Positions 3,853-13,190 of a DNA stretch of 64,000 bases are shown here, one piece after another (positions within the stretch are counted from its first letter, which is position 1; every line of letters begins with the position of its first letter). The position numbers were made by a program, and so were the translations under genes. The DNA lies in NCBI RefSeq assembly GCF_003334765.1, contig NZ_QOWT01000022.1; one strand, given 5' to 3'. The notes under the pieces are model-generated. The model saw only the letters and a program-made list of their open reading frames with translations. It had not been told where the DNA came from and searched no databases. This stretch comes from Escherichia coli. Lineage in GTDB: Bacteria; Pseudomonadota; Gammaproteobacteria; Enterobacterales; Enterobacteriaceae.

Positions 3853-4659
3853 ATGAGTGTTATGAATCCAATAAGTTCTAATATATTTAATGCTGAATTT
3901 TTAAACACCCCGGCAGCGGCACTTGCCGCATGGATTTCCATTATTGGAGCTGTTATAACTTTGGTGACGATAGTTATAAGAGCACTATTCAAATATAGAA
4001 AATCTCATGATGTAATTTTGAAAAAATCAGGAATACCTGCGTTTATATTGAATTTTTTTCTTATACGAATATCATTAAAAAGGCTGCCTACTATCACATG
4101 GGCTGAAAAATCAATCACGGTTCTCTTTTCACTTCTTTTTTTGTGTGCAATTTATATTTTTGGTCCAGTTTTCATCCAAGCCATTAGAACCCCACCAAAT
4201 AGCACATTGCTTTATTGGATAAAATCCGGTGAATCATTTTATATGTCAAAAAAACTGGCGACTGCAGCTACAATATTAACCACTCCTGATTGGGAAATAT
4301 CAAAGGATGATTGCGAAGAGTCATCCTCTGCCAGTACAGAGAAGTACAAATCATTAACTATCGAACATAAAGAAATTCTTTGTAAACTACTAACCACTGA
4401 TGAAGGGAATGCTTACATTGATGAAGAAGTCAAGAATTTCGTTAAAGACAAATTCTTTATCTATTCCTTTGCCCCAACAACCATATTTATTCTATTATGG
4501 ATTTCTTTGGGTTTTATACTGACCATTCACTATTCTAAAAAAGTTAGGAAATATATTCTGACTGAACAAAAAAATGCAATTCATTGGGCATATGGTGAAT
4601 TCAAGACAGAAGGAATCTATTCAATATATCAAGAGTTAGAACGTAAGACTCACCATTAA
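3853..4659 (+). CDS. Hypothetical polytopic membrane protein (moron inserted between tail genes S and V)
   Basis: 268-aa ORF, strongly AT-rich unlike flanking tail genes; several hydrophobic segments (e.g. AALAAWISIIGAVITLVTIVI, ITVLFSLLFLCAIYIFGPVF, TTIFILLWISLGFILTI); no recognisable domain. Confidence 0.6.
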   Translation: MSVMNPISSNIFNAEFLNTPAAALAAWISIIGAVITLVTIVIRALFKYRKSHDVILKKSGIPAFILNFFLIRISLKRLPTITWAEKSITVLFSLLFLCAIYIFGPVFIQAIRTPPNSTLLYWIKSGESFYMSKKLATAATILTTPDWEISKDDCEESSSASTEKYKSLTIEHKEILCKLLTTDEGNAYIDEEVKNFVKDKFFIYSFAPTTIFILLWISLGFILTIHYSKKVRKYILTEQKNAIHWAYGEFKTEGIYSIYQELERKTHH

Positions 4660-5047: not shown

Positions 5048-5498
5048 GTTTCACCGTCCACATTTCTTCAGGTTCATCGGGTTCTGCTACCGCTTCAACG
5101 CTCGACACACTGCCGTCAGTGCTGACCAGCACACGTTCCGTCAGTTGCAGGTTAAGGCTGATATCACAGACATCGTTGCGCAGAATATCCACCTCAAAGG
5201 TAAATAGTTTTTCCCGTAACGCCGGGTTATTGATGGCATCGGGCTGGTTATCCCGCAGCCACAGCAAAACCGGGGCCATCAGCAGATTCTGGTCGCCGCT
5301 GAAATCCTCAATCACCACGTTCAGGGTGTAACCACGCAGCCCTACGAGTTCACTAAAGGCAGTATCTTTCACCTGATGGAGCCGGACCTGAACCAGGAAA
5401 TTTACGGCCTGCCGGAATATCTGTCCGCCATTCCGTCCGCCTTGCTGAACGAGTCCGCTACGCTGTTCCGGCGTAAATACTACATCAATGGCAGTCAT
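5040..5498 (-). CDS. Tail completion protein (P2 gpR-like); N-terminus possibly not native
   Basis: 152-aa ORF; C-terminal ~100 aa look gpR-like (YTLNVVIEDFSGD...LTERVLVS); N-terminal ~40 codons are antisense to the portal fragment. Confidence 0.65.
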   Translation of the reverse strand: MTAIDVVFTPEQRSGLVQQGGRNGGQIFRQAVNFLVQVRLHQVKDTAFSELVGLRGYTLNVVIEDFSGDQNLLMAPVLLWLRDNQPDAINNPALREKLFTFEVDILRNDVCDISLNLQLTERVLVSTDGSVSSVEAVAEPDEPEEMWTVKRG

Positions 5499-5906
5499 GC
5501 AGGGTTCATCATGTATATGACCGACGCCGCGCAGAACCAGGAGGACGTGAACAACATCCGCCAGGCCATGAAAAGCGCTAAAGGACCGGGCAACTTCCGC
5601 AACCTGTTTATGTATTCACCCAACGGCAAAAAGGACGGGATTCAGATAATCCCGCTGTCAGAGGTAGCGGCAAAGGATGAGTTTCTGAACATTAAGAACG
5701 TGAGCCGAGACGACATGATGGCTGCACACCGCGTTCCGCCGCAGATGATGGGGATTATGCCGAGTAATGTTGGGGGATTTGGGGATGTGGAAAAGGCGAG
5801 TAAGGTGTTTGTCCGTAACGAATTGATACCGCTGCAAAAGCGAATTAAAGAAATTAATGAATGGTTGAGTGATGAAATAATTTCTTTCCAACCATATGAA
5901 TTATAA
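5376..5906 (+). pseudogene. Portal protein fragment (P2 gpQ-like, C-terminal portion only)
   Basis: 176-aa ORF ending ...NVSRDDMMAAHRVPPQMMGIMP...; portal-like C-terminus, about half the expected length; directly abuts gpR on the opposite strand with no capsid, terminase or lysis genes between. Confidence 0.6.
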
Positions 5907-5907
5907 T

Positions 5908-5934
5908 AAAGTAGGGCAAATAATGCCCTACTTT
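5908..5934. terminator. Bidirectional stem-loop between convergent portal fragment and 285-aa cargo gene
   Basis: Perfect inverted repeat AAAGTAGGGC-(AAATAAT)-GCCCTACTTT flanked by A/T runs. Confidence 0.6.
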
Positions 5935-6785
5935 AACCAAATATTATAATCCAATCTTCCTACGTATCTTGAAAAAACAGCCAGAGCAATTGCTTGCCCT
6001 ACACTTGTTAATTCAATTCCTTGATAGTTGCTCTTTGAAAATTTTTCTAAAAATGCAGACACATGAGGGGCAACTAACTTAAGATTTGAAATATATGCAC
6101 TCTTATCTTTTATATCAGTCGGATATTTACTCATAAAATAGTCTTCAACATCCATCCCTAAAAAAGTATTCCATGAACAAGCCCCTGCATATTGAATGTG
6201 ATATATCTGGGCTTGAGACAAATTAAACCCATTAGTATACATTGATTCAAAGTTTCTAAAATTGTGCTCCAACAAATCCAATCGAACACCATTAACAGGG
6301 TCTTTGATCTCAACATTCTTGAGAAGAAAAACTATCGTTATAAGTGATATTTGTTGCTGTGTTAACTTGGGAACGACGGTAACTGCCTCCGTTAAAACTA
6401 TATCTCTAAAATCGTCATTGTTATTGGAGACTCGTTCAACTAACAACTGAGAAAGCACATCCATATTAGCTTTCTTTCCCTTCCTGGCTGATGACTTTAA
6501 TGCCTCAGTCAATGTAGCCTGAACGTCCGGATCGCAAAATTTATCAATAATCAATCTATCAACGTTTTTTGTTAAATCCGAAACGACACGCTCTTCAAAA
6601 TCTTTTGCATTCTCTTGAGCTGCAGCATAAGCAACATCTTTCAATTTTGGAAACTGATTTTCGAAGAGAATGTTGAATAGTTCTCTAACCTCGGAAAACG
6701 ACATCCCTGAAACATTTACATTATTTCCAGCTTGAATTGCATACGAATTATTACCTATTTGTTGCTTTTGCTTATCACTAAACAT
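5928..6785 (-). CDS. Hypothetical protein, 285 aa (AT-rich cargo, cos-proximal)
   Basis: Long ORF in AT-rich DNA; no domain recognised; N-terminal low-complexity motif IGNNSYAIQAGNNVNV. Confidence 0.65.
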   Translation of the reverse strand: MFSDKQKQQIGNNSYAIQAGNNVNVSGMSFSEVRELFNILFENQFPKLKDVAYAAAQENAKDFEERVVSDLTKNVDRLIIDKFCDPDVQATLTEALKSSARKGKKANMDVLSQLLVERVSNNNDDFRDIVLTEAVTVVPKLTQQQISLITIVFLLKNVEIKDPVNGVRLDLLEHNFRNFESMYTNGFNLSQAQIYHIQYAGACSWNTFLGMDVEDYFMSKYPTDIKDKSAYISNLKLVAPHVSAFLEKFSKSNYQGIELTSVGQAIALAVFSRYVGRLDYNIWLK

Positions 6786-6794
6786 ATATCCTCC

Positions 6795-7040
6795 TTATTT
6801 TTTATCACCTGTATTTATACAATCAATTTTAATATCACCTCTAGCCTGGACAGCAGTTGAATTATCACCAACTGATTGGCTCATAGAATTATATTTATTT
6901 TTTGTAGTGATAAGTAATCCAGCTAAAGCGCTAACTGCAGCCAAAAATGCAACAATAGAATCAAAACCAGGATCCATATAAAGCCATAATCCTGCAATCG
7001 ATGCCAGCATACATGTAATGACTATTGCAAAAATTTTCAT
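6795..7040 (-). CDS. Small membrane protein, 81 aa, two predicted TM helices; co-oriented 9 bp upstream of the 285-aa gene
   Basis: Hydrophobic segments IFAIVITCMLASIAGLWLY and IVAFLAAVSALAGLLIT; C-terminal tail VGDNSTAVQARGDIKI resembles the N-terminus of the downstream protein. Confidence 0.55.
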   Translation of the reverse strand: MKIFAIVITCMLASIAGLWLYMDPGFDSIVAFLAAVSALAGLLITTKNKYNSMSQSVGDNSTAVQARGDIKIDCINTGDKK

Positions 7041-7108
7041 AAATTCTCCTTCTAATGGAAGTGGTTATACCGAAAACAATTTCCTTTTACAACCACGCAC
7101 AGCGCGCG

Positions 7109-7127
7109 CTCGTATCCCCGCCACGCC
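7109..7127 (-). other. cos-like site (P2/186-type cohesive-end sequence)
   Basis: Minus strand reads GGCGTGGCGGGGATACGAG, close to the P2/186 cos overhang as I recall it (GGCG[A/T]GGCGGGGAAAGCA-); sits in a GC-rich island inside AT-rich DNA. Confidence 0.45.
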
Positions 7128-7345
7128 TGCCCGCTTTGTGTAGTGGTTTTCATGCACCTGCATGACATAAGTAAAAGCCCGCCAGAACTGGCGGGACTGA
7201 GCAAAAACGATCCTTTTGCGATCATTCATTTTCATGCGCTATAGTCATGCAACAAACGCATACGAACCATATGGTTAGATTACTCATCAAGTCAGATGGA
7301 TTTTCAGGCAGATTGCCACAGCAATTGTAAAGGAGCGAGATTGAA

Positions 7346-8347
7346 ATGGGTGGAGAGACTTCGGCTATACAACGAGTCGCGGGTAAGATTTCTGATGATA
7401 TTTTCTCAGTGTTCAAATGGGATCGTGCCGCTAGAGCGGACATGAATTGGGATTGTTGCCAAGAGGCTCATTCCAAGAAAACACATCCAAGCGATGTTGT
7501 ATTTTTCTACATAGATCCATATGAGGAGGAAATGGTCTATCTCAACACAGACCTCAAAAGCTATGCAGAAGGTACTATTGGGAAAAAAATAGTCGAGGGA
7601 GCTTTAACATCGCTTGCTTTAGCTACCGAGTGTGCAAATGTCAGTGAAGAATGGCGATTGAAATATGTTCATGATGATTCTTTAGGTTATAACGTAAGAG
7701 GGTTATTATTCTTATATAACCATGATAATTTATATGATAAAGACTTCTATGAGAATATTACAAAAAAATTAGATCACTCATCTATAAATTGCCCTCCAAA
7801 CATCAAACTACATTTGCTTGACCCTTATAAAATATCAGATTTGATAAACATATCTTCTGACATAACTAAGTTAATTGGTTCAGGCAAACTTCCTCAACCT
7901 GATAAGTTCACATATTATTATCCAGATCTTTCCCTAACAAGAATAAAGCACCCTATTAATCAGACAACACCTGCAACAATTGAATTATTAACATCACCAT
8001 ACATTATAATAAAGCATGAGGCTTTCAGTTGGCTCAGGGATAAAAACCCTGAGGGATATGTTGTTTATTACAATCAACCGGGGGATTCAGTAGACGAATT
8101 CGTTTACTTCTTTGATATGTTATCAACTTATCAGATATTAACCGAAGGTAAACCAATCGTATTACGCCATTGTCACATTCACCCAAATGAAAATGCCATT
8201 CATCATTTTGAAAGAGCGAAAAAGAAATACAGCACAGACTGGCTCTTAGGCGAGGATGAAAGACTTTTTCTTAAAATTGACTTCGACAAGACAGACAAAA
8301 TTGTTGTTGAATATAATCTTGAACAAATCGGCATGGAGCAACGATAA
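7346..8347 (+). CDS. Hypothetical protein A, 333 aa (first gene of three-gene cargo operon)
   Basis: ORF with AGGAG-like RBS ~10 nt upstream; AT-rich; stop overlaps next start (TAATG); no Walker A, RT or TIR motif seen. Confidence 0.7.
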   Translation: MGGETSAIQRVAGKISDDIFSVFKWDRAARADMNWDCCQEAHSKKTHPSDVVFFYIDPYEEEMVYLNTDLKSYAEGTIGKKIVEGALTSLALATECANVSEEWRLKYVHDDSLGYNVRGLLFLYNHDNLYDKDFYENITKKLDHSSINCPPNIKLHLLDPYKISDLINISSDITKLIGSGKLPQPDKFTYYYPDLSLTRIKHPINQTTPATIELLTSPYIIIKHEAFSWLRDKNPEGYVVYYNQPGDSVDEFVYFFDMLSTYQILTEGKPIVLRHCHIHPNENAIHHFERAKKKYSTDWLLGEDERLFLKIDFDKTDKIVVEYNLEQIGMEQR

Positions 8348-9426
8348 TGGCTAAAAAACTATATTTCGCAACTGATAAAAATATTTATGATGCATTACAT
8401 CATAAAAGGATAACCGCTGCAAAGTTGCATGAATTATTGTTGAATCGAGGTGTGTTTTTATCACCAGAACTCGACAAGGAAATACTAATCGAGGAAATAT
8501 CCAAACTTCCTCACGGATTTAATGAATTAGAACACATAAAAAAACTGGTCAAAACATATGACCCAAGGGAAAGCACTACTAGTGTGAGCTTCCAAACCTC
8601 AACAAATCAGGCCGAATTAAAAAGTGCTGCTGAAGCACTAAAAAAAACATGCTCCCCTAGTAAAGGTCAAAGCCTGAATATTGTAGCTAAAAAAGATGGC
8701 TCGCTTACAGTAGAATACAAATATGAAGAAATAGACCTGTCTAAAACTGCATTACGTCAGATCGACAAGCGGAATGTTATAATAGAACTTCGCCCTGGAG
8801 CTGACAAAGTTGAAGTACGTATGCCTCAAAACCCCGAGGCAAAAAAAGTTATTGAGAGCTTGCAAAACGAGCTATCTAAAATCAAGTCCGAACCTATCGA
8901 GCGCTTCGAAATATCATTACTAGCAATAACTGATCCTACATTGCGAAGTCAGTTTTTTCAGGAATTAATGAATGGTCTACGCGGTTATGAGACTGATGAC
9001 GTAACAAAAGTCGAATTAAATCGCAGTACTGATGCTAGTGAGGATGAAGACAAGGAAGAAACTATTGATACCGGATTTGTTAAGAAAGCCGTCCTTAATG
9101 GTGAAGGGGTAAATAGTTCAGCTATATTTTCTCAACTACATGAGAAAGGTTATTATATCGGGCGTATTGCATGGTCTTCAAAGCCGACAAGTGGAATTGG
9201 AGACAGAATCAACGTCGAAGCATTTTTCAAAGACTCAGAAAAATGCTGTGACTTTGCCTATCAAATTAAAGGTATAAACAATCAAAAAGAAGACGGTTTC
9301 AATGTAACCATTCGCGCGGCAACGGCACAAGAGAAAAAACATATTAGTGAATTAATTGAGTCCGCCGCTGAAAATGCCTATAATATAATAATAGGATCAG
9401 AGGTGAACGAAGATGAAAAAGGTTAA
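8347..9426 (+). CDS. Hypothetical protein B, 359 aa (second gene of three-gene cargo operon)
   Basis: ORF coupled to gene A by a 1-nt overlap and to gene C by a 14-nt overlap; acidic stretch DASEDEDKEE; no recognisable domain. Confidence 0.7.
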   Translation: MAKKLYFATDKNIYDALHHKRITAAKLHELLLNRGVFLSPELDKEILIEEISKLPHGFNELEHIKKLVKTYDPRESTTSVSFQTSTNQAELKSAAEALKKTCSPSKGQSLNIVAKKDGSLTVEYKYEEIDLSKTALRQIDKRNVIIELRPGADKVEVRMPQNPEAKKVIESLQNELSKIKSEPIERFEISLLAITDPTLRSQFFQELMNGLRGYETDDVTKVELNRSTDASEDEDKEETIDTGFVKKAVLNGEGVNSSAIFSQLHEKGYYIGRIAWSSKPTSGIGDRINVEAFFKDSEKCCDFAYQIKGINNQKEDGFNVTIRAATAQEKKHISELIESAAENAYNIIIGSEVNEDEKG

Positions 9427-10096
9427 ATGGCTTAAGTTAAACATACGGCTTGAGTTTGAAACAGCCGTTAGACGTCTTTCTCTTGATTCTTTTACAGAGG
9501 ATAAAGGGAAAGGGTTCATTTTTGATAAAATACGCCATGATTTTGCAAATGGTCGCTTTGTCGAGCGTATTGTTTATCATGATAAAATATTAAGCTTTGA
9601 CGGAAGCGAAACTACCGTTGAAAGAATCGAATATCGCACCACAAATTTTAGCGTGGCTTTAGACTCTCTTCCTGTAATGCAGATTACTAACCCACCCAGA
9701 ACTTTAAAGCCTTTTTCGCAGGCTTTGGTAAAAAATCTTGGCTTAGGTGTTAGTTTGGAAGAAATTGACATAAACCCTATAGACTGGCTTAATGAAATAT
9801 CTTCAAGTGTAAATATCAATTTAACACAACTTGATATTTCAAGGGTTAGAGTTTCTGATTACGCCACAGCTAAAATGCAAATAATTGGCAGCAATGATCT
9901 TAGGAAGTATTATAAAGAAGAATTAGAGGGTAAAAAAATAAGAATTGACAGGCTTGTTTGCTCTGTTAATTCATTAGAATATTCCGGTAAGCTCAAGATC
10001 ACCAATAGCGGCCTTGCTTATATTGATGTTAGAAATGAGAATGAGTTTACGAAAATCGTTTTTGATACGTTAAAAAAAGTCACCCTTCAATCATAG
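9413..10096 (+). CDS. Hypothetical protein C, 227 aa (third gene of three-gene cargo operon)
   Basis: ORF starting inside the end of gene B; followed by a strong hairpin; no recognisable domain. Confidence 0.65.
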   Translation: MKKVKWLKLNIRLEFETAVRRLSLDSFTEDKGKGFIFDKIRHDFANGRFVERIVYHDKILSFDGSETTVERIEYRTTNFSVALDSLPVMQITNPPRTLKPFSQALVKNLGLGVSLEEIDINPIDWLNEISSSVNINLTQLDISRVRVSDYATAKMQIIGSNDLRKYYKEELEGKKIRIDRLVCSVNSLEYSGKLKITNSGLAYIDVRNENEFTKIVFDTLKKVTLQS

Positions 10097-10152: not shown

Positions 10153-10183
10153 GTAGGCGTCAGAATCAAGTTCTGACGCCTAC
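10153..10183. terminator. Bidirectional stem-loop between cargo operon and DinI-like gene
   Basis: 13-bp perfect inverted repeat GTAGGCGTCAGAA-(TCAAG)-TTCTGACGCCTAC. Confidence 0.6.
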
Positions 10184-10191
10184 AATGTTTC

Positions 10192-10425
10192 TTAATGCAG
10201 CCAGCTATCGTCCTCCCAGACCTGCTGCATTATTTCCATCACTCGCTTTTTGTCTTCATCCAGTTTTAACCCGCTCAGCTCAACGCCATTGGCGCTGCCC
10301 TTACGGATACGAATTGCTGTTTTGGGATACAGAGGGCGCAAATTACGGTAAAGCTCGGATTCAAGGGCGTCCAGGGTAGACTGGCTAATCTTCTGCTCTT
10401 TATCGATCATTATTTCAATGCGCAT
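10192..10425 (-). CDS. DinI-like protein
   Basis: ORF 10192-10497; internal Met begins MRIEIMIDKEQ..., 77 aa, alignable by eye to E. coli DinI (MRIEVTIAK...WESADDW); downstream of a LexA box. Confidence 0.7.
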   Translation of the reverse strand: MRIEIMIDKEQKISQSTLDALESELYRNLRPLYPKTAIRIRKGSANGVELSGLKLDEDKKRVMEIMQQVWEDDSWLH

Positions 10426-10435
10426 AAAAGCCACC

Positions 10436-10624
10436 TCAGCTGATGACATCCATTGAGCGGTTGTATTCGTGGGTTCTGATTTTTGCCATGAGTTCATCTG
10501 TCAGTTCAGAAACCCACTGCAGAGCCAGCCCCTTCTCTTCATCACTACACTCACTAGCCGCTACAAGCTTAAGAAAAAAATCAATGCGCTGGAGCTTCAA
10601 AGACTCCAAAAAATAGTCCTGCAT
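10436..10624 (-). CDS. Small protein, 62 aa, first gene after the LexA box (possible Tum-like antirepressor)
   Basis: ORF ~40 bp downstream of the LexA box; position corresponds to the SOS-controlled tum module of 186-like phages; functional call is by position only. Confidence 0.35.
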   Translation of the reverse strand: MQDYFLESLKLQRIDFFLKLVAASECSDEEKGLALQWVSELTDELMAKIRTHEYNRSMDVIS

Positions 10625-10664
10625 CTTTCCTCCTATGACACCAAAGCAACACTGTATACATAAC

Positions 10665-10683
10665 CACTGTTTGTATTTACAGT
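10665..10683. promoter_or_regulatory. LexA operator (SOS box) upstream of the tum-like/DinI-like module
   Basis: ACTGTTTGTATTTACAGTA fits CTG-N10-CAG; AT-rich promoter-like context. Confidence 0.7.
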
Positions 10684-10775
10684 ATATAATAATATTACTG
10701 ATGTAAAACGTTTTTTACGTTCATCAGCCTGATATGCCTGGTATTATTAAGAGCACGAATTGTTAACCTGCGTAA

Positions 10776-13190
10776 TTAATACAGGTTCCGCCACTTATCA
10801 TCTTCCTGCAAACGCTGGTTCCGATAGAAGATACGCAGGCCTGCTCCTGACGGAATACTGCCACCACGTAGGAGTAAATCGACCTCTTTCTCGCTGCCAT
10901 CAAATCCTCTGGACTTCAGCTCATAGACGAGCTGCTGTCGCTGATGATCTGTAATTCGCTGTTTGTAGTCTTTACGCCGTTTCAGCTTAACTAGGCGTAA
11001 CCTCGCTGCCAGTTCCCGGCGCTCTTTTTTGCTCATACTGTGCAGGTAATCGTGCAATTCCTTGTCATCCATGCGGGTAATGTCCGTTCTGGTGTCCCCA
11101 TCAGCTGATTTATCTTTATCCTGTTGGTTCAAATTTTCAGCAAGGGGACAGTTATTGCCACGAGTCCAAGGGGCGCAAGCGCCCTGGTCGGCTGCCGCCT
11201 CCTGAACGTCAACGGCTTTACGAACCATTTTCCACTTCACTGCATGAGTGCAGATCTTGCCCTCTGCAATGGGTGACCAGATGCCATAAATACGAATGCC
11301 GTGATCGCCATAGGCGGTCGGCTCTTCGTTGATTTCATAAGCGGTTCTGATGAGGTGATATTTACGGGGAACCAGTACGCCGCCCTGCTTCATGATGTAG
11401 GTGGCAAAACAACCAGCATCAGCAGCAGCCAGAATGGCATCAAGACGCGGGTTATCCAGTACCGGCGCACCTGCTTTTTTGTCACCCTGTTGCCTTGCCG
11501 CCTGACCAGCCAGCAAGCGAAGTTCACGGTAAGCCTGACGCCCCGGAATACCAAAGAAGCGGAATTGCTGAACACGATGCAGAGACGCCCAGGCATTAAC
11601 GTATTCAGCGTTATCACGCAGGGATTTACCCGTTTCCTTGCTGATCTCGCCAGCCAGACCACGCCCGTCAATGTTCTTACTGATGTATTTCGCGATGTAG
11701 CTTGTTGGCGTACCTTTGCGCGGGTTTATCAGCTCAGACTTAAAGCGTGGCCCCGTGTTATTGCCCAGCTCCTCGCGGTCTTCACGGATGGCAAACTTAC
11801 GCAACAATGCAGTAATGGCGCGGCGGTCTTTTTTGCGCATGAAACACAACAGGTGCCAGTGAACTGTGCCGTCATGATGCGGTTCAGCCACCCGCACGCC
11901 ATACCAGCGCAACCCGGCTTTGTGCATAGCCTTACGAAATGCAGCAAACATGCCGACCAGATAATCGCTGCTTTGTCTTACCGTCGCGTTTGTCCAGGTC
12001 GGGTTTGGTCTGCCGTTATTGAGCGTGGAATGGAAACGCGACGGACAGGTGATAGTGTAGAAAACGGCACAGTCACTGCGCATTTCTGCGATAAGCTCCA
12101 GACCTTTAACACAGGCCATCATCTCATTGCGGCGATGCGCCGGGTTGCTGCTGCTGGCGTTTACCACATCCTCCATGTCCAGCGTGTCGCCGTCTTCGTT
12201 CACCAGTTCATGAGAACGGAAAAACTCCAGCGACTTACGGCGCTGCTCACGTTTATGCATCACGGCTTCATAGCTGACATAGGGAGATGCTTTTTTGCTG
12301 ACCAGGCAAACAGCACGCAACTGCTCTTCCCGCCATTCGCAACGCATCTTCCATAATTTCCGGTACCACCAATCGGCGCACAACATACGCGCCAGCGAAC
12401 CCGGAATGAGTTCATAGGGCACGGGTTTACGGCGGTTTCTTTTCCGACGAAGTTGCTCAAACGCAGGCGGGATAACATCCAGTCGCAGGGTTTCTGCTGC
12501 CACCTTTTCCCATGTCTTGCGGATTTCTTCTGGCTTAACATCATCGGTGGCGTACAAATCACCACAAGCGGCATCAAGACACATGCTCATATGCGCAGCG
12601 ACAAGAGTAGACAGGCGTTTCACCTGATCCTGACTCATTTCAGGCAGAATCAGCAGGCCGTCCAGCCCTACATGGCTTGCCATAAAACGAAAAGATGCAG
12701 ATAGCTGGCTGTCGCGTACATGCTCCAGTCGCTCCAAACATGGCTTAATCGTCTCACGCAAATAGCGGGAATAAGCCTTTGGCCTGCCCAGGCTGCTGAA
12801 GTATTCAATACGTTGCATCAGCGGCTTGCTGATATGGGAAGGCTGGGCATTGACGTCCGCCAGAATGACCATATCTGGATTAAAACGCTGCTGCTCATGC
12901 GCCAGCTTTGCCCGACTAATGAGCTTATCCTGCTCCATTTCGCGCTGGACAGGATCACGGGATTCATTAAAGAAATAACGCTCCCAGACCTGATCACTCA
13001 GTGCCTCGCGGCGCAGGTGTTCCTGTTCGTTATCGGCAGCGTACAGAGCGATCAGGTTTGAAAGCGCAGAAACCGGCGCAACTTCCGCCGGGTCCAGATA
13101 AGGGTTAATGGCCTTTTTCGGGCTGTTCCATGAGAACGCTGCGGCAGCCTCGTTAAAGCCGCAGCAGTTGTTCATATCGGCATGGCTCAT
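10776..13190 (-). CDS. Replication initiation protein A (P2/186 gpA-like rolling-circle replicase)
   Basis: 804-aa ORF, the size and position of P2-family gene A; start overlaps Dam stop. Confidence 0.75.

Follow-up and report, generated by a model that had tools for sequence, protein, structure and literature searches.

An AT-rich operon of three genes lies beside the cos site of a P2-like prophage in a 64,000-nucleotide stretch of Escherichia coli DNA (the whole stretch analyzed, hereafter the window). The question raised by this locus is whether it constitutes an undescribed anti-phage system without an assignable family, as a preliminary description of the sequence had proposed, or a system that is already known, and by what mechanism its products may act.

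Organization and Identity of the Operon

The operon comprises three co-directional open reading frames, here termed Hp1, Hp2, and Hp3, in the following setting:

5376-5906, strand not given: portal C-terminus, a neighbor of the locus
7072-7179, strand not given: P2-type cos-like region (colinear local alignment to the P2 cos region)
7216-7245, + strand: candidate sigma-70 promoter, TTGCGA-18-TATAGT (9/12 consensus match; weak evidence)
7346-8347, + strand: Hp1 ORF, 333 aa (ORF map)
8347-9426, + strand: Hp2 ORF, 359 aa (ORF map)
9413-10096, + strand: Hp3 ORF, 227 aa (ORF map)
10153-10183, + strand: terminator hairpin with a 14-bp stem (terminator scan), separating the operon from the convergent DinI-like gene
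10192-13190, strand not given: DinI-like gene and gpA, neighbors beyond the terminator

The genes are translationally coupled at the positions first reported: Hp1 and Hp2 through a TAATG stop/start overlap (8345-8349; the two ORFs share 1 nt), and Hp2 and Hp3 through a 14-nt overlap (9413-9426). Ribosome-binding sites precede the starts of Hp1 (AAGGAG) and Hp3 (GAGG). The GC content of the operon (0.364) is lower than that of the window (0.495) and of the adjoining gpA gene (0.528), which bears out the AT-richness relative to the flanks, and the cos-like site on one side and the terminator hairpin on the other were both recovered as described. Within the cos-like region, the 19-nt cohesive end of P2 has a counterpart at 7109-7127 (14/19 identical in local alignment), and the exact P2 cos 19-mer was not found with three or fewer mismatches; the local alignment shows a diverged cos. 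The cargo module has its left edge at ∼7103; matches in other E. coli genomes start at query position 59-64, equivalent to window position ∼7100, and a block of ∼155 bp (∼7100 to 7255) is present in 1252 of 5426 complete E. coli genomes.

The operon occupies the cos-proximal gpA-gpQ cargo hotspot of a P2-like prophage. This prophage has a deletion, and the portal-side neighbor of the operon is a pair consisting of LPO_1073 and a 2-TM gene.

All three translations are 100% identical to the proteins of pFR109, as determined by string comparison with Table S2A of Rousset et al. (2022). This construct, listed as "hp + hp + hp" and cloned from E. coli E1114, protected E. coli against P1, and only P1, in a panel of eight phages (Rousset et al., 2022, Cell Host Microbe 30:740). 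Full-length, end-to-end matches to the PADLOC models were obtained for Hp1 (E 1.1e-239), Hp2 (E 2.7e-248), and Hp3 (E 2e-157), and DefenseFinder names the system, which is mostly prophage-borne, Rst_3HP. We are virtually certain that the operon is 3HP (Rst_3HP), an anti-phage system carried by P2-like prophages; the system is published, experimentally validated, and detected by both standard annotation tools. The preliminary description was correct in placing an anti-phage system in this hotspot. Its term "undescribed" does not survive the identity to pFR109, nor does the absence of an assignable family survive the assignments by PADLOC (Hp1/Hp2/Hp3) and DefenseFinder; together these place the operon in an already named defense system, an outcome which that description had itself named as contrary to its proposal.

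The published clone also informs the transcriptional signals. The promoter at 7216-7245 falls within the fragment that gave defense from native upstream sequence in pFR109; it is retained as a candidate because such matches do not exceed the shuffled expectation in this region. The reverse primer of pFR109 anneals immediately downstream of the hairpin (∼10184-10203), so the terminator was included in the validated clone.

The three genes recur in colinear order across 63 distinct viral loci (intergenic distances, −92 to +14 nt), where Hp1 identity goes down to ∼31%, and are therefore real genes and not chance ORFs. The triad also adjoins integrases in unrelated elements. Hp3 diverges much faster than Hp1, such that the Hp3 HMM misses the third gene of locus L062 and barely detects the one from Delftia, and the Hp1 family further includes two-gene relatives, which do not have Hp3.

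As a discovery the locus has no importance, being the published prototype of a named defense system. It retains some value because the literature searched yielded neither a mechanism nor a mechanistic experiment for 3HP (census-type mentions only); no paper linking 3HP to GAPS4 or to RdgC was found there either. The modest new lead is the link to GAPS4 and RdgC. The relation of Hp1 and Hp2 to GAPS4, the RdgC-like fold of Hp2 and Hp3, and a third gene that phage-borne copies strictly conserve together provide a concrete, testable hypothesis and a set of point mutants.

A Predicted Nuclease and Two RdgC-Like Proteins

In agreement with the preliminary description, no Walker, reverse transcriptase, TIR, or HNH signatures were found. 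Pfam-A scans of the three proteins returned nothing significant, using a version that predates PF26115 and PF26110, and neither NCBIfam nor PHROGs gave a function for Hp1 or Hp3. The precomputed annotation, by comparison, assigns Pfam PF26115 (PDDEXK_GAPS4) to a 333-aa protein identical to Hp1 as well as to each of the 120 relatives listed, and in some genomes the PGAP name of Hp1 is PD-(D/E)XK nuclease domain protein. Hp1 itself has no NCBIfam match even at E ≤ 10, but members of its family match GapS4a (E 5e-9 to 8e-14), in one case along the entire length. A profile search of 1.84 billion proteins with Hp1 returned 558 relatives, and the best 150 of the 558 are all Hp1-type.

Conservation was assessed in 44 homologs sharing 35-75% identity with Hp1. 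Ten residues are invariant (E4, H42, H47, P48, D50, D69, K71, S72, Y73, and N125), and the PD-(D/E)xK order, E ... D ... (D/E)xK, is satisfied by E4, D50, D69, and K71. The segment FFYIDPYEEEMVYLNTDLK, earlier pointed out as a possible degenerate PD-(D/E)xK core, does supply the (D/E)xK part, since D69 and K71 are invariant in the 44 homologs; the partner aspartate is D50. The His-rich patch at residues 275-287, the other cue offered for this protein, is not conserved and was rejected as a catalytic site. At the level of sequence, the assignment of Hp1 to the PD-(D/E)xK nucleases of the PDDEXK_GAPS4 family is supported, and Hp1 is the predicted effector of the system.

Hp2 matches NCBIfam GapS4b weakly (23.5 bits; cut-off, 300), as does its Vibrio homolog, and precomputed annotation assigns PF26110 (GAPS4b_N) to Hp2 relatives. 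The AlphaFold monomer of Hp2 has an N-terminal helical domain and a body with the RdgC fold, and the fold of the Hp3 monomer (227 aa) is likewise that of RdgC. Hp2 is thus predicted to be a remote GAPS4b relative, serving as a ring-forming, DNA-binding scaffold, and Hp3 is the component that sets 3HP apart from two-gene GAPS4. The resemblance of both proteins to RdgC is a property of the predicted models: by sequence they share 9-10% identity with RdgC and match neither Pfam RdgC nor PDB RdgC, and searches of PDB sequences with single proteins and profiles gave nothing credible and no solved structure of 3HP or of a close relative. Recent duplication was considered as an origin of Hp3 and rejected despite the common fold, because profile-profile comparison of Hp2 with Hp3 gave a probability of 0.1%, that is, no sequence relationship.

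RdgC dimerizes into rings whose central pore binds DNA, and the fold is also that of the Iml3-Chl4 heterodimers (PMC11077077). Protein scaffolds, among them CENP-L/N and KA1 domains, adopt this fold as well.

Proposed Mechanism and Alternatives

In the GAPS4 system, two genes, GAPS4a and GAPS4b, are necessary and sufficient for defense (Mahata et al., bioRxiv 2023.03.28.534373; 2025.09.07.674715). The complex is an a2b2 assembly with the b subunits arranged in a ring; it is a DNase activated by DNA breaks and acts by abortive infection, degrading host DNA as well and lowering viability at high MOI (10.1101/2025.09.07.674715). Incoming lambda DNA is also degraded, and no escape mutants could be isolated (10.1101/2025.09.07.674715). 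The reported ring of GAPS4b fits the RdgC fold of the predicted Hp2 monomer, which suggests that GAPS4b may be an RdgC-type ring; if so, this would offer a structural account of possible DNA-end sensing by such systems.

For 3HP, we incline, if only slightly, toward a GAPS4-like mechanism, in which a DNase is triggered by DNA ends or breaks, an extra RdgC-fold subunit takes part, and the outcome is abortive. Hp1 would be the DNase of the GAPS4a lineage, with E4, D50, and D69-x-K71 as its putative catalytic residues. Hp2 would be the GAPS4b-like partner, with an RdgC-fold body that dimerizes to surround DNA as a ring or horseshoe and a helical domain at the N terminus that docks Hp1, and Hp3, as a second RdgC-fold protein, might join the ring, in the manner of the Iml3-Chl4 heterodimer, or gate it. 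If 3HP behaves like GAPS4, its complex would stay silent on intact circular DNA and would be activated by free DNA ends or breaks arising during infection, whereupon Hp1 would degrade DNA non-selectively and the infection would be aborted. Against this mechanism, the sequence similarity to GAPS4 is remote (Hp1 without an NCBIfam match, Hp2 at 23.5 of 300 bits), Hp3 may change the logic, since GAPS4 needs two genes only, and protection against P1 alone is not obviously explained by a general break sensor. More tentatively, 3HP could represent a branch of the GAPS4 superfamily with three components, where a hetero-ring or gated ring of Hp2 and Hp3 would read free DNA ends and license Hp1, with the RdgC fold as a widespread sensor. 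If this were true, the fold would be a widespread, so far unrecognized DNA-state sensor module of bacterial immunity, spanning RexA, Hp2, probably GAPS4b, and hundreds of uncharacterized Hp3-like proteins of ∼225 aa.

The outcome need not be abortive. The DNA of P1 enters the cell linear and terminally redundant, and recombination is needed to circularize it. The three proteins might thread onto incoming linear phage DNA alone and degrade it, as with P1 DNA that has yet to cyclize, leaving the circular host chromosome intact so that infected cells survive. The mode of P1 entry and the observation of protection against P1 alone both speak for such direct restriction, as do the expectation that free ends would be the easiest loading point for closed rings of the RdgC type and the degradation of incoming lambda DNA by GAPS4. 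We nonetheless consider it unlikely, given that the homologous GAPS4 also degrades host DNA and reduces viability at high MOI, and that 3HP has no sign of self/non-self marking. Somewhat less probable still is an arrangement akin to toxin-antitoxin pairs, in which Hp3 and/or Hp2 keep the Hp1 nuclease inactive until it is freed by a specific P1 protein; the RdgC-like folds would then be protein-protein scaffolds, like CENP-L/N and KA1 domains of the same fold, and not DNA sensors. A one-phage spectrum is typical of protein-recognizing sensors, and the fast evolution of Hp3 is as expected of an arms-race component, but the lack of escape mutants in the sister system GAPS4 argues against a protein trigger, and the existence of two-gene relatives implies that Hp3 is not an indispensable antitoxin for the family.

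It is also conceivable, albeit very improbable, that the operon is not primarily a defense system but a prophage module tuning host recombination or the SOS response through a nuclease and RdgC-like RecA antagonists, with the P1 phenotype as a side effect. E. coli RdgC inhibits RecA functions (PMC11077077), and the operon adjoins a gene of the DinI family, another RecA modulator. This DinI-like gene, however, is a conserved backbone gene of P2 irrespective of the cargo, and the triad lies beside integrases in unrelated elements too. Moreover, the identical clone confers phage resistance when it is plasmid-borne and away from the prophage, and neither Hp2 nor Hp3 matches the RdgC family in sequence.

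Relationship to Known Systems

The closest counterpart is the prototype, pFR109, which has the same upstream region from the cos-like site onward, the same hotspot, and the same gene order and overlaps. Nothing differs within the system itself; the differences are in the portal-side neighbor and the prophage deletion.

With GAPS4, the 3HP system shares a nuclease of ∼330 aa with an N-terminal PD-(D/E)xK domain, followed by a translationally coupled partner of ∼360 aa (GAPS4b_N), and apparently the motif H-x-x-D ... x-K at an equal position (D50 in Hp1, D49 and D59 in GAPS4). The motif is HPSD...DLK in Hp1 and HGxD...SxK in published GAPS4a, with P for G and D for S, and 3HP differs further in its conserved third gene, Hp3, present in the 63 colinear triads. 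Scores fall far below the curated NCBIfam cut-offs (GapS4a, 270 bits; GapS4b, 300 bits), with relatives at 18-52 bits. The spectra differ as well: 3HP is reported to act against P1 only, whereas GAPS4-RiKo protects against many phages (10.1101/2025.09.07.674715). 3HP looks like a distant three-gene relative of GAPS4.

RdgC itself, the recombination-associated, ring-shaped DNA-binding dimer of E. coli (PDB 2OWL), has the fold of the predicted Hp2 and Hp3 monomers, but is ∼300 aa long compared with 227 aa for Hp3, and Hp2 has the additional N-terminal helical domain. RexA, from the RexAB exclusion system of lambda, gives a structural match far weaker than that of RdgC; RexA is partnered by the membrane protein RexB and not by a nuclease.

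In Shedu and Hachiman, the proposed logic is the same, with a PD-(D/E)xK nuclease licensed by free ends or by damaged or aberrant DNA, a common theme for which both are cited by the authors of the GAPS4 study (10.1101/2025.09.07.674715). The locus differs in that homology to their sensor parts was not detected and PADLOC gave no match to either. Lastly, the P2 genes old and tin, which encode the OLD ATPase-nuclease and Tin, are unrelated in their proteins. They occupy the same genomic slot of P2-family phages, between cos and the orf91/DinI-gpA end, and likewise exclude other phages (Rousset et al., 2022).

The Three-Gene Operon Is 3HP

The three co-directional genes at 7346-10096 encode the proteins termed Hp1, Hp2, and Hp3 and lie in a P2-family prophage, between a cos-like region and a terminator hairpin.

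Features of the operon and its flanks
5376-5906: PBSX/P2-type portal, C-terminal half (P2-family flank)
7072-7179: P2-type cos-like region (colinear alignment with the P2 cos region)
7346-8347: Hp1 ORF, 333 aa, co-directional with Hp2 and Hp3 (ORF map)
8347-9426: Hp2 ORF, 359 aa, co-directional with Hp1 and Hp3 (ORF map)
9413-10096: Hp3 ORF, 227 aa, co-directional with Hp1 and Hp2 (ORF map)
10153-10183: terminator hairpin, 14-bp stem (terminator scan)
10192-10497: DinI-family gene (P2-family flank)
10776-13190: gpA-like replication endonuclease (P2-family flank)

The Hp1/Hp2 junction is TAATG (1-nt overlap), Hp2 and Hp3 overlap by 14 nt, and Shine-Dalgarno-like sequences occur upstream of the Hp1 and Hp3 starts. 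GC content is 0.364 in the operon, versus 0.495 in the window and 0.528 in the adjoining gpA gene. The counterpart of the P2 cohesive end (19 nt, 7109-7127) is identical to P2 at 14 of 19 positions, and the exact P2 cos 19-mer had no occurrence at three or fewer mismatches. The three-gene feature is real and its limits were correctly drawn in the preliminary description, whose sequence features (ORFs, overlaps, AT-richness, cos-like site, and hairpin) are borne out in every detail.

By every testable criterion, the locus is a member, and in fact the prototype, of 3HP ("hp + hp + hp"), named Rst_3HP in DefenseFinder and described there as mostly prophage-encoded. The PADLOC-DB models Hp1, Hp2, and Hp3 align with the three proteins over their full length (E 1.1e-239, 2.7e-248, and 2e-157, respectively). 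Rousset et al. 2022 (PMC9122126) studied the gpA-gpQ hotspot near cos in P2-like prophages, and Table S2A of that study includes the clone pFR109, "hp + hp + hp", from E. coli E1114; in a string comparison, the three window translations are identical to the pFR109 proteins. The upstream DNA of the clone agrees with the window from the cos-like site on, and its reverse primer site lies directly beyond the hairpin. Cloned 3HP protected against P1 only, in a panel of eight phages (Rousset et al. 2022, PMC9122126), and the locus is already known and experimentally validated in published work. The proposal that the operon is a defense system occupying the P2 cargo hotspot is upheld by protein identity to this hotspot system. 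The accompanying claim that the operon is undescribed, with no assignable family, is therefore wrong, given the PADLOC matches, the identity to pFR109, and the Rst_3HP entry; PADLOC and DefenseFinder, the two resources suggested for a check, both include it under a name.

Distribution and Prophage Context

Of 5426 complete E. coli genomes, 17 carry the full locus (12 at at least 99.8% identity, five at about 86%), which is also present in Klebsiella P2-like phage records (96% identity). A close Hp1/Hp2 variant, in which the third protein has a different N-terminus, has 116 occurrences and stands beside the label "Putative nuclease" (Table S5B, Rousset et al. 2022, PMC9122126); its Hp1 and Hp2 are roughly 90-95% identical to those of the window, as estimated by eye from the printed sequences. 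Hp1 homologs are also found in Vibrio fluvialis and Delftia acidovorans (about 42% identity) and in Photorhabdus (61%), in operons encoding proteins of 326-334, 366-369, and 206-228 aa that adjoin integrases or recombinases. The Vibrio and Delftia homologs are recognized by the PADLOC Hp1 and Hp2 models and those of Photorhabdus by Hp2, while the Hp3 model matched the third genes of Vibrio and Photorhabdus. The Delftia third gene had no match to this model, and is an Hp3 homolog in profile comparison (probability 94%).

Scanning IMG/VR gave 80 loci; HMMs built in this analysis detect Hp1, Hp2, and Hp3 in 74 of them. When the five loci from genomes and metagenomes are added, there are 63 distinct Hp1 sequences in a colinear 1-2-3 triad, with inter-gene distances of -92 to +14 nt and Hp3 lengths of 211-249 aa. 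Six viral loci are incomplete, five of them truncated by contig ends. The sixth (L062, 7948-8709), the only non-truncated viral locus without an Hp3 HMM match, still has a third ORF where Hp3 would be expected and of fitting length, which indicates that Hp3 evolves much faster than the other two proteins. Two-gene versions are present in the metagenomic loci L007 and L008/L009, where the second genes are Hp2 homologs (probability 99.1 and 99.9%) and no gene of ~225 aa lies 3' of them, other large genes being found there instead. Because the triad is conserved in phage loci while these loci have two genes, Hp1-Hp2 is the core, and Hp3 a fast-evolving component kept in the phage-borne clade. The next gene encodes a 688-aa SLFN/AlbA_2 + HATPase_c_4 protein in L007 (1793-6289) and a product of >906 aa in L008 (3512-8492); they may act as third partners in place of Hp3 or just be defense genes that lie nearby.

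Relative to its counterpart, the same prophage as found in E. coli H3 (comparison locus L006, 5221-10285), the window prophage is without about 5.07 kb at a junction near ~5325-5332, where the flanks overlap by 8 bp. This segment holds the gpR N-terminus, lysC, gpM, major capsid, scaffold, terminase ATPase, and the portal's N-terminal half, and its loss makes the prophage defective, with its defense cargo kept.

An AT-rich gene pair (5928-7040, - strand, GC 0.343), located between the portal gene and cos, forms a second, separate cargo module. It codes for a 285-aa member of the LPO_1073/Vpar_1526 family (243 bits in NCBIfam) and for a product of 81 aa to which Table S5B assigns two TM segments; in that table the pair is system 141, "DUF6358 | Abi_alpha" (14 occurrences), catalogued but not tested (Rousset et al. 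2022, PMC9122126). The pair had no significant PADLOC or Pfam-A match. The adjoining stretch 7040-7100 is matched in only five of the 17 3HP-bearing E. coli genomes, which suggests that those five alone carry the module. Between baseplate gene V and the tail-completion genes, a 268-aa AT-rich ORF (3853-4659, + strand, GC about 0.33-0.45) overlaps the end of a gpS-like gene; the E. coli H3 annotation at the matching position is a DUF6216 family protein, and the ORF, which had no PADLOC match, may be another moron.

Predicted Properties of the Three Proteins

The Pfam family PF26115, named PDDEXK_GAPS4 in the annotation of genomic context, is a precomputed match on an Hp1-identical protein in a large protein collection, and on 120 of the 120 relatives listed. 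One Hp1 relative in UniRef is named "GAPS4 PD-(D/E)XK nuclease domain-containing protein", and PGAP labels the Hp1 gene of some genomes as a PD-(D/E)XK nuclease domain protein; the link between Hp1 and GAPS4 (a two-gene defense system, GAPS4a + GAPS4b) is already implicit in the Pfam and UniRef labels. Our Pfam-A scan library was without PF26115 and PF26110, both known here from precomputed annotations, and the empty Pfam-A scan obtained here therefore does not equate to the absence of a family. In an alignment of 44 homologs (35-75% identity to Hp1), the residues E4, H42, H47, P48, D50, D69, K71, S72, Y73, and N125 are invariant, forming the canonical E...D...(D/E)xK arrangement. The segment FFYIDPYEEEMVYLNTDLK, previously offered as a PD-(D/E)xK cue, includes a real D69-x-K71, invariant in the 44 homologs; a second cue, the His-rich patch at 275-287, is unconserved in the same alignment and was rejected. 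The Hp1 family is large, with 558 representatives recovered (profile search, 50% clustering, E <= 1e-3). Weak NCBIfam GapS4a matches (E 1e-3 to 8e-14), one of them full-length and all far under the curated cut-off, were obtained for the Delftia homolog and for six members out of ten sampled.

Hp2 matches NCBIfam GapS4b over residues 14-314 (E 2.2e-5; 23.5 bits, cut-off 300), and PF26110 (GAPS4b_N) is found on several close Hp2 relatives. Sequence-based searches gave no annotation for Hp3, and a Foldseek search of AFDB50 with its model returned 376 structural relatives (E <= 1e-3). Among the matches listed, these are about 225 aa, mostly from Proteobacteria and almost all "uncharacterized", with stray labels of RdgC (one), DUF4747, and TIGR04255; together they form a large family of short proteins with the RdgC fold that lacks annotation. 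Hp2 and Hp3 have no detectable sequence similarity to each other (hhalign probability 0.1%), and both are predicted from their models to have the RdgC fold, yet fall outside the RdgC family by sequence. The GAPS4 homology and the RdgC folds are direct results of these tools. RdgC itself forms ring-shaped dimers with a basic central pore that binds DNA non-specifically, and Iml3-Chl4 forms DNA-contacting heterodimers with an RdgC-type fold (PMC11077077).

Proposed Mechanism and Relation to GAPS4

Our search of the searchable literature found no mechanism for 3HP. Mahata et al. first described GAPS4, a system of two genes. Its GAPS4a component is a divergent PD-(D/E)xK enzyme whose N-terminal part bears the motif HGxD...SxK, and the substitutions D59A (Vibrio system) and D49A (E. 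coli homolog) abolish defense (10.1101/2025.09.07.674715). GAPS4a and GAPS4b assemble into an a2b2 heterotetramer whose two b subunits make a ring, the helical domains of b serving as docking sites for the a subunits; the complex degrades host and phage DNA, is triggered by nalidixic acid and other DNA-break inducers, and acts by abortive infection (10.1101/2025.09.07.674715). By analogy with GAPS4, we infer the assembly, trigger, and abortive outcome of 3HP: Hp1 would be the DNase effector, with D50 as the counterpart of GAPS4a D49/D59, Hp2 would be a GAPS4b-like ring-forming scaffold, and Hp3, the other subunit with an RdgC fold, would be either part of the ring or its gate; free ends or breaks in DNA arising in infection would license the complex. 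Taken as a whole, we consider this mechanism somewhat probable.

The main difficulty is one of spectrum, in that 3HP protects only against P1 within its eight-phage panel, whereas GAPS4-RiKo protects against many phages, and three other explanations stay alive as a result. The narrow spectrum counts in favor of an end-specific, non-abortive restriction of incoming linear DNA, which we regard as unlikely overall, and it also counts for a phage protein as the trigger, with Hp3 as an evolving sensor or inhibitor, an explanation to which we give slightly less credence still. A non-defense role of 3HP in RecA modulation also persists through this difficulty, but is very improbable, given that phage resistance was seen from plasmid-borne 3HP.

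No paper linking 3HP with GAPS4 or RdgC was found; the GAPS4 preprint (10.1101/2025.09.07.674715) makes no mention of 3HP, Rousset, or P2 hotspots, and the only defense paper found to discuss RdgC at length is the RexA structure paper. 3HP resembles GAPS4 in that Hp1 falls within the Pfam PDDEXK_GAPS4 domain family, and differs from it in scoring below the curated NCBIfam cut-offs, in having three genes rather than two, and in the variant motif of Hp1. Because of these differences, 3HP is a relative of GAPS4 that should not be classified as a GAPS4 system; tentatively, it could represent a three-subunit branch of GAPS4 with two RdgC-fold, DNA-sensing subunits.
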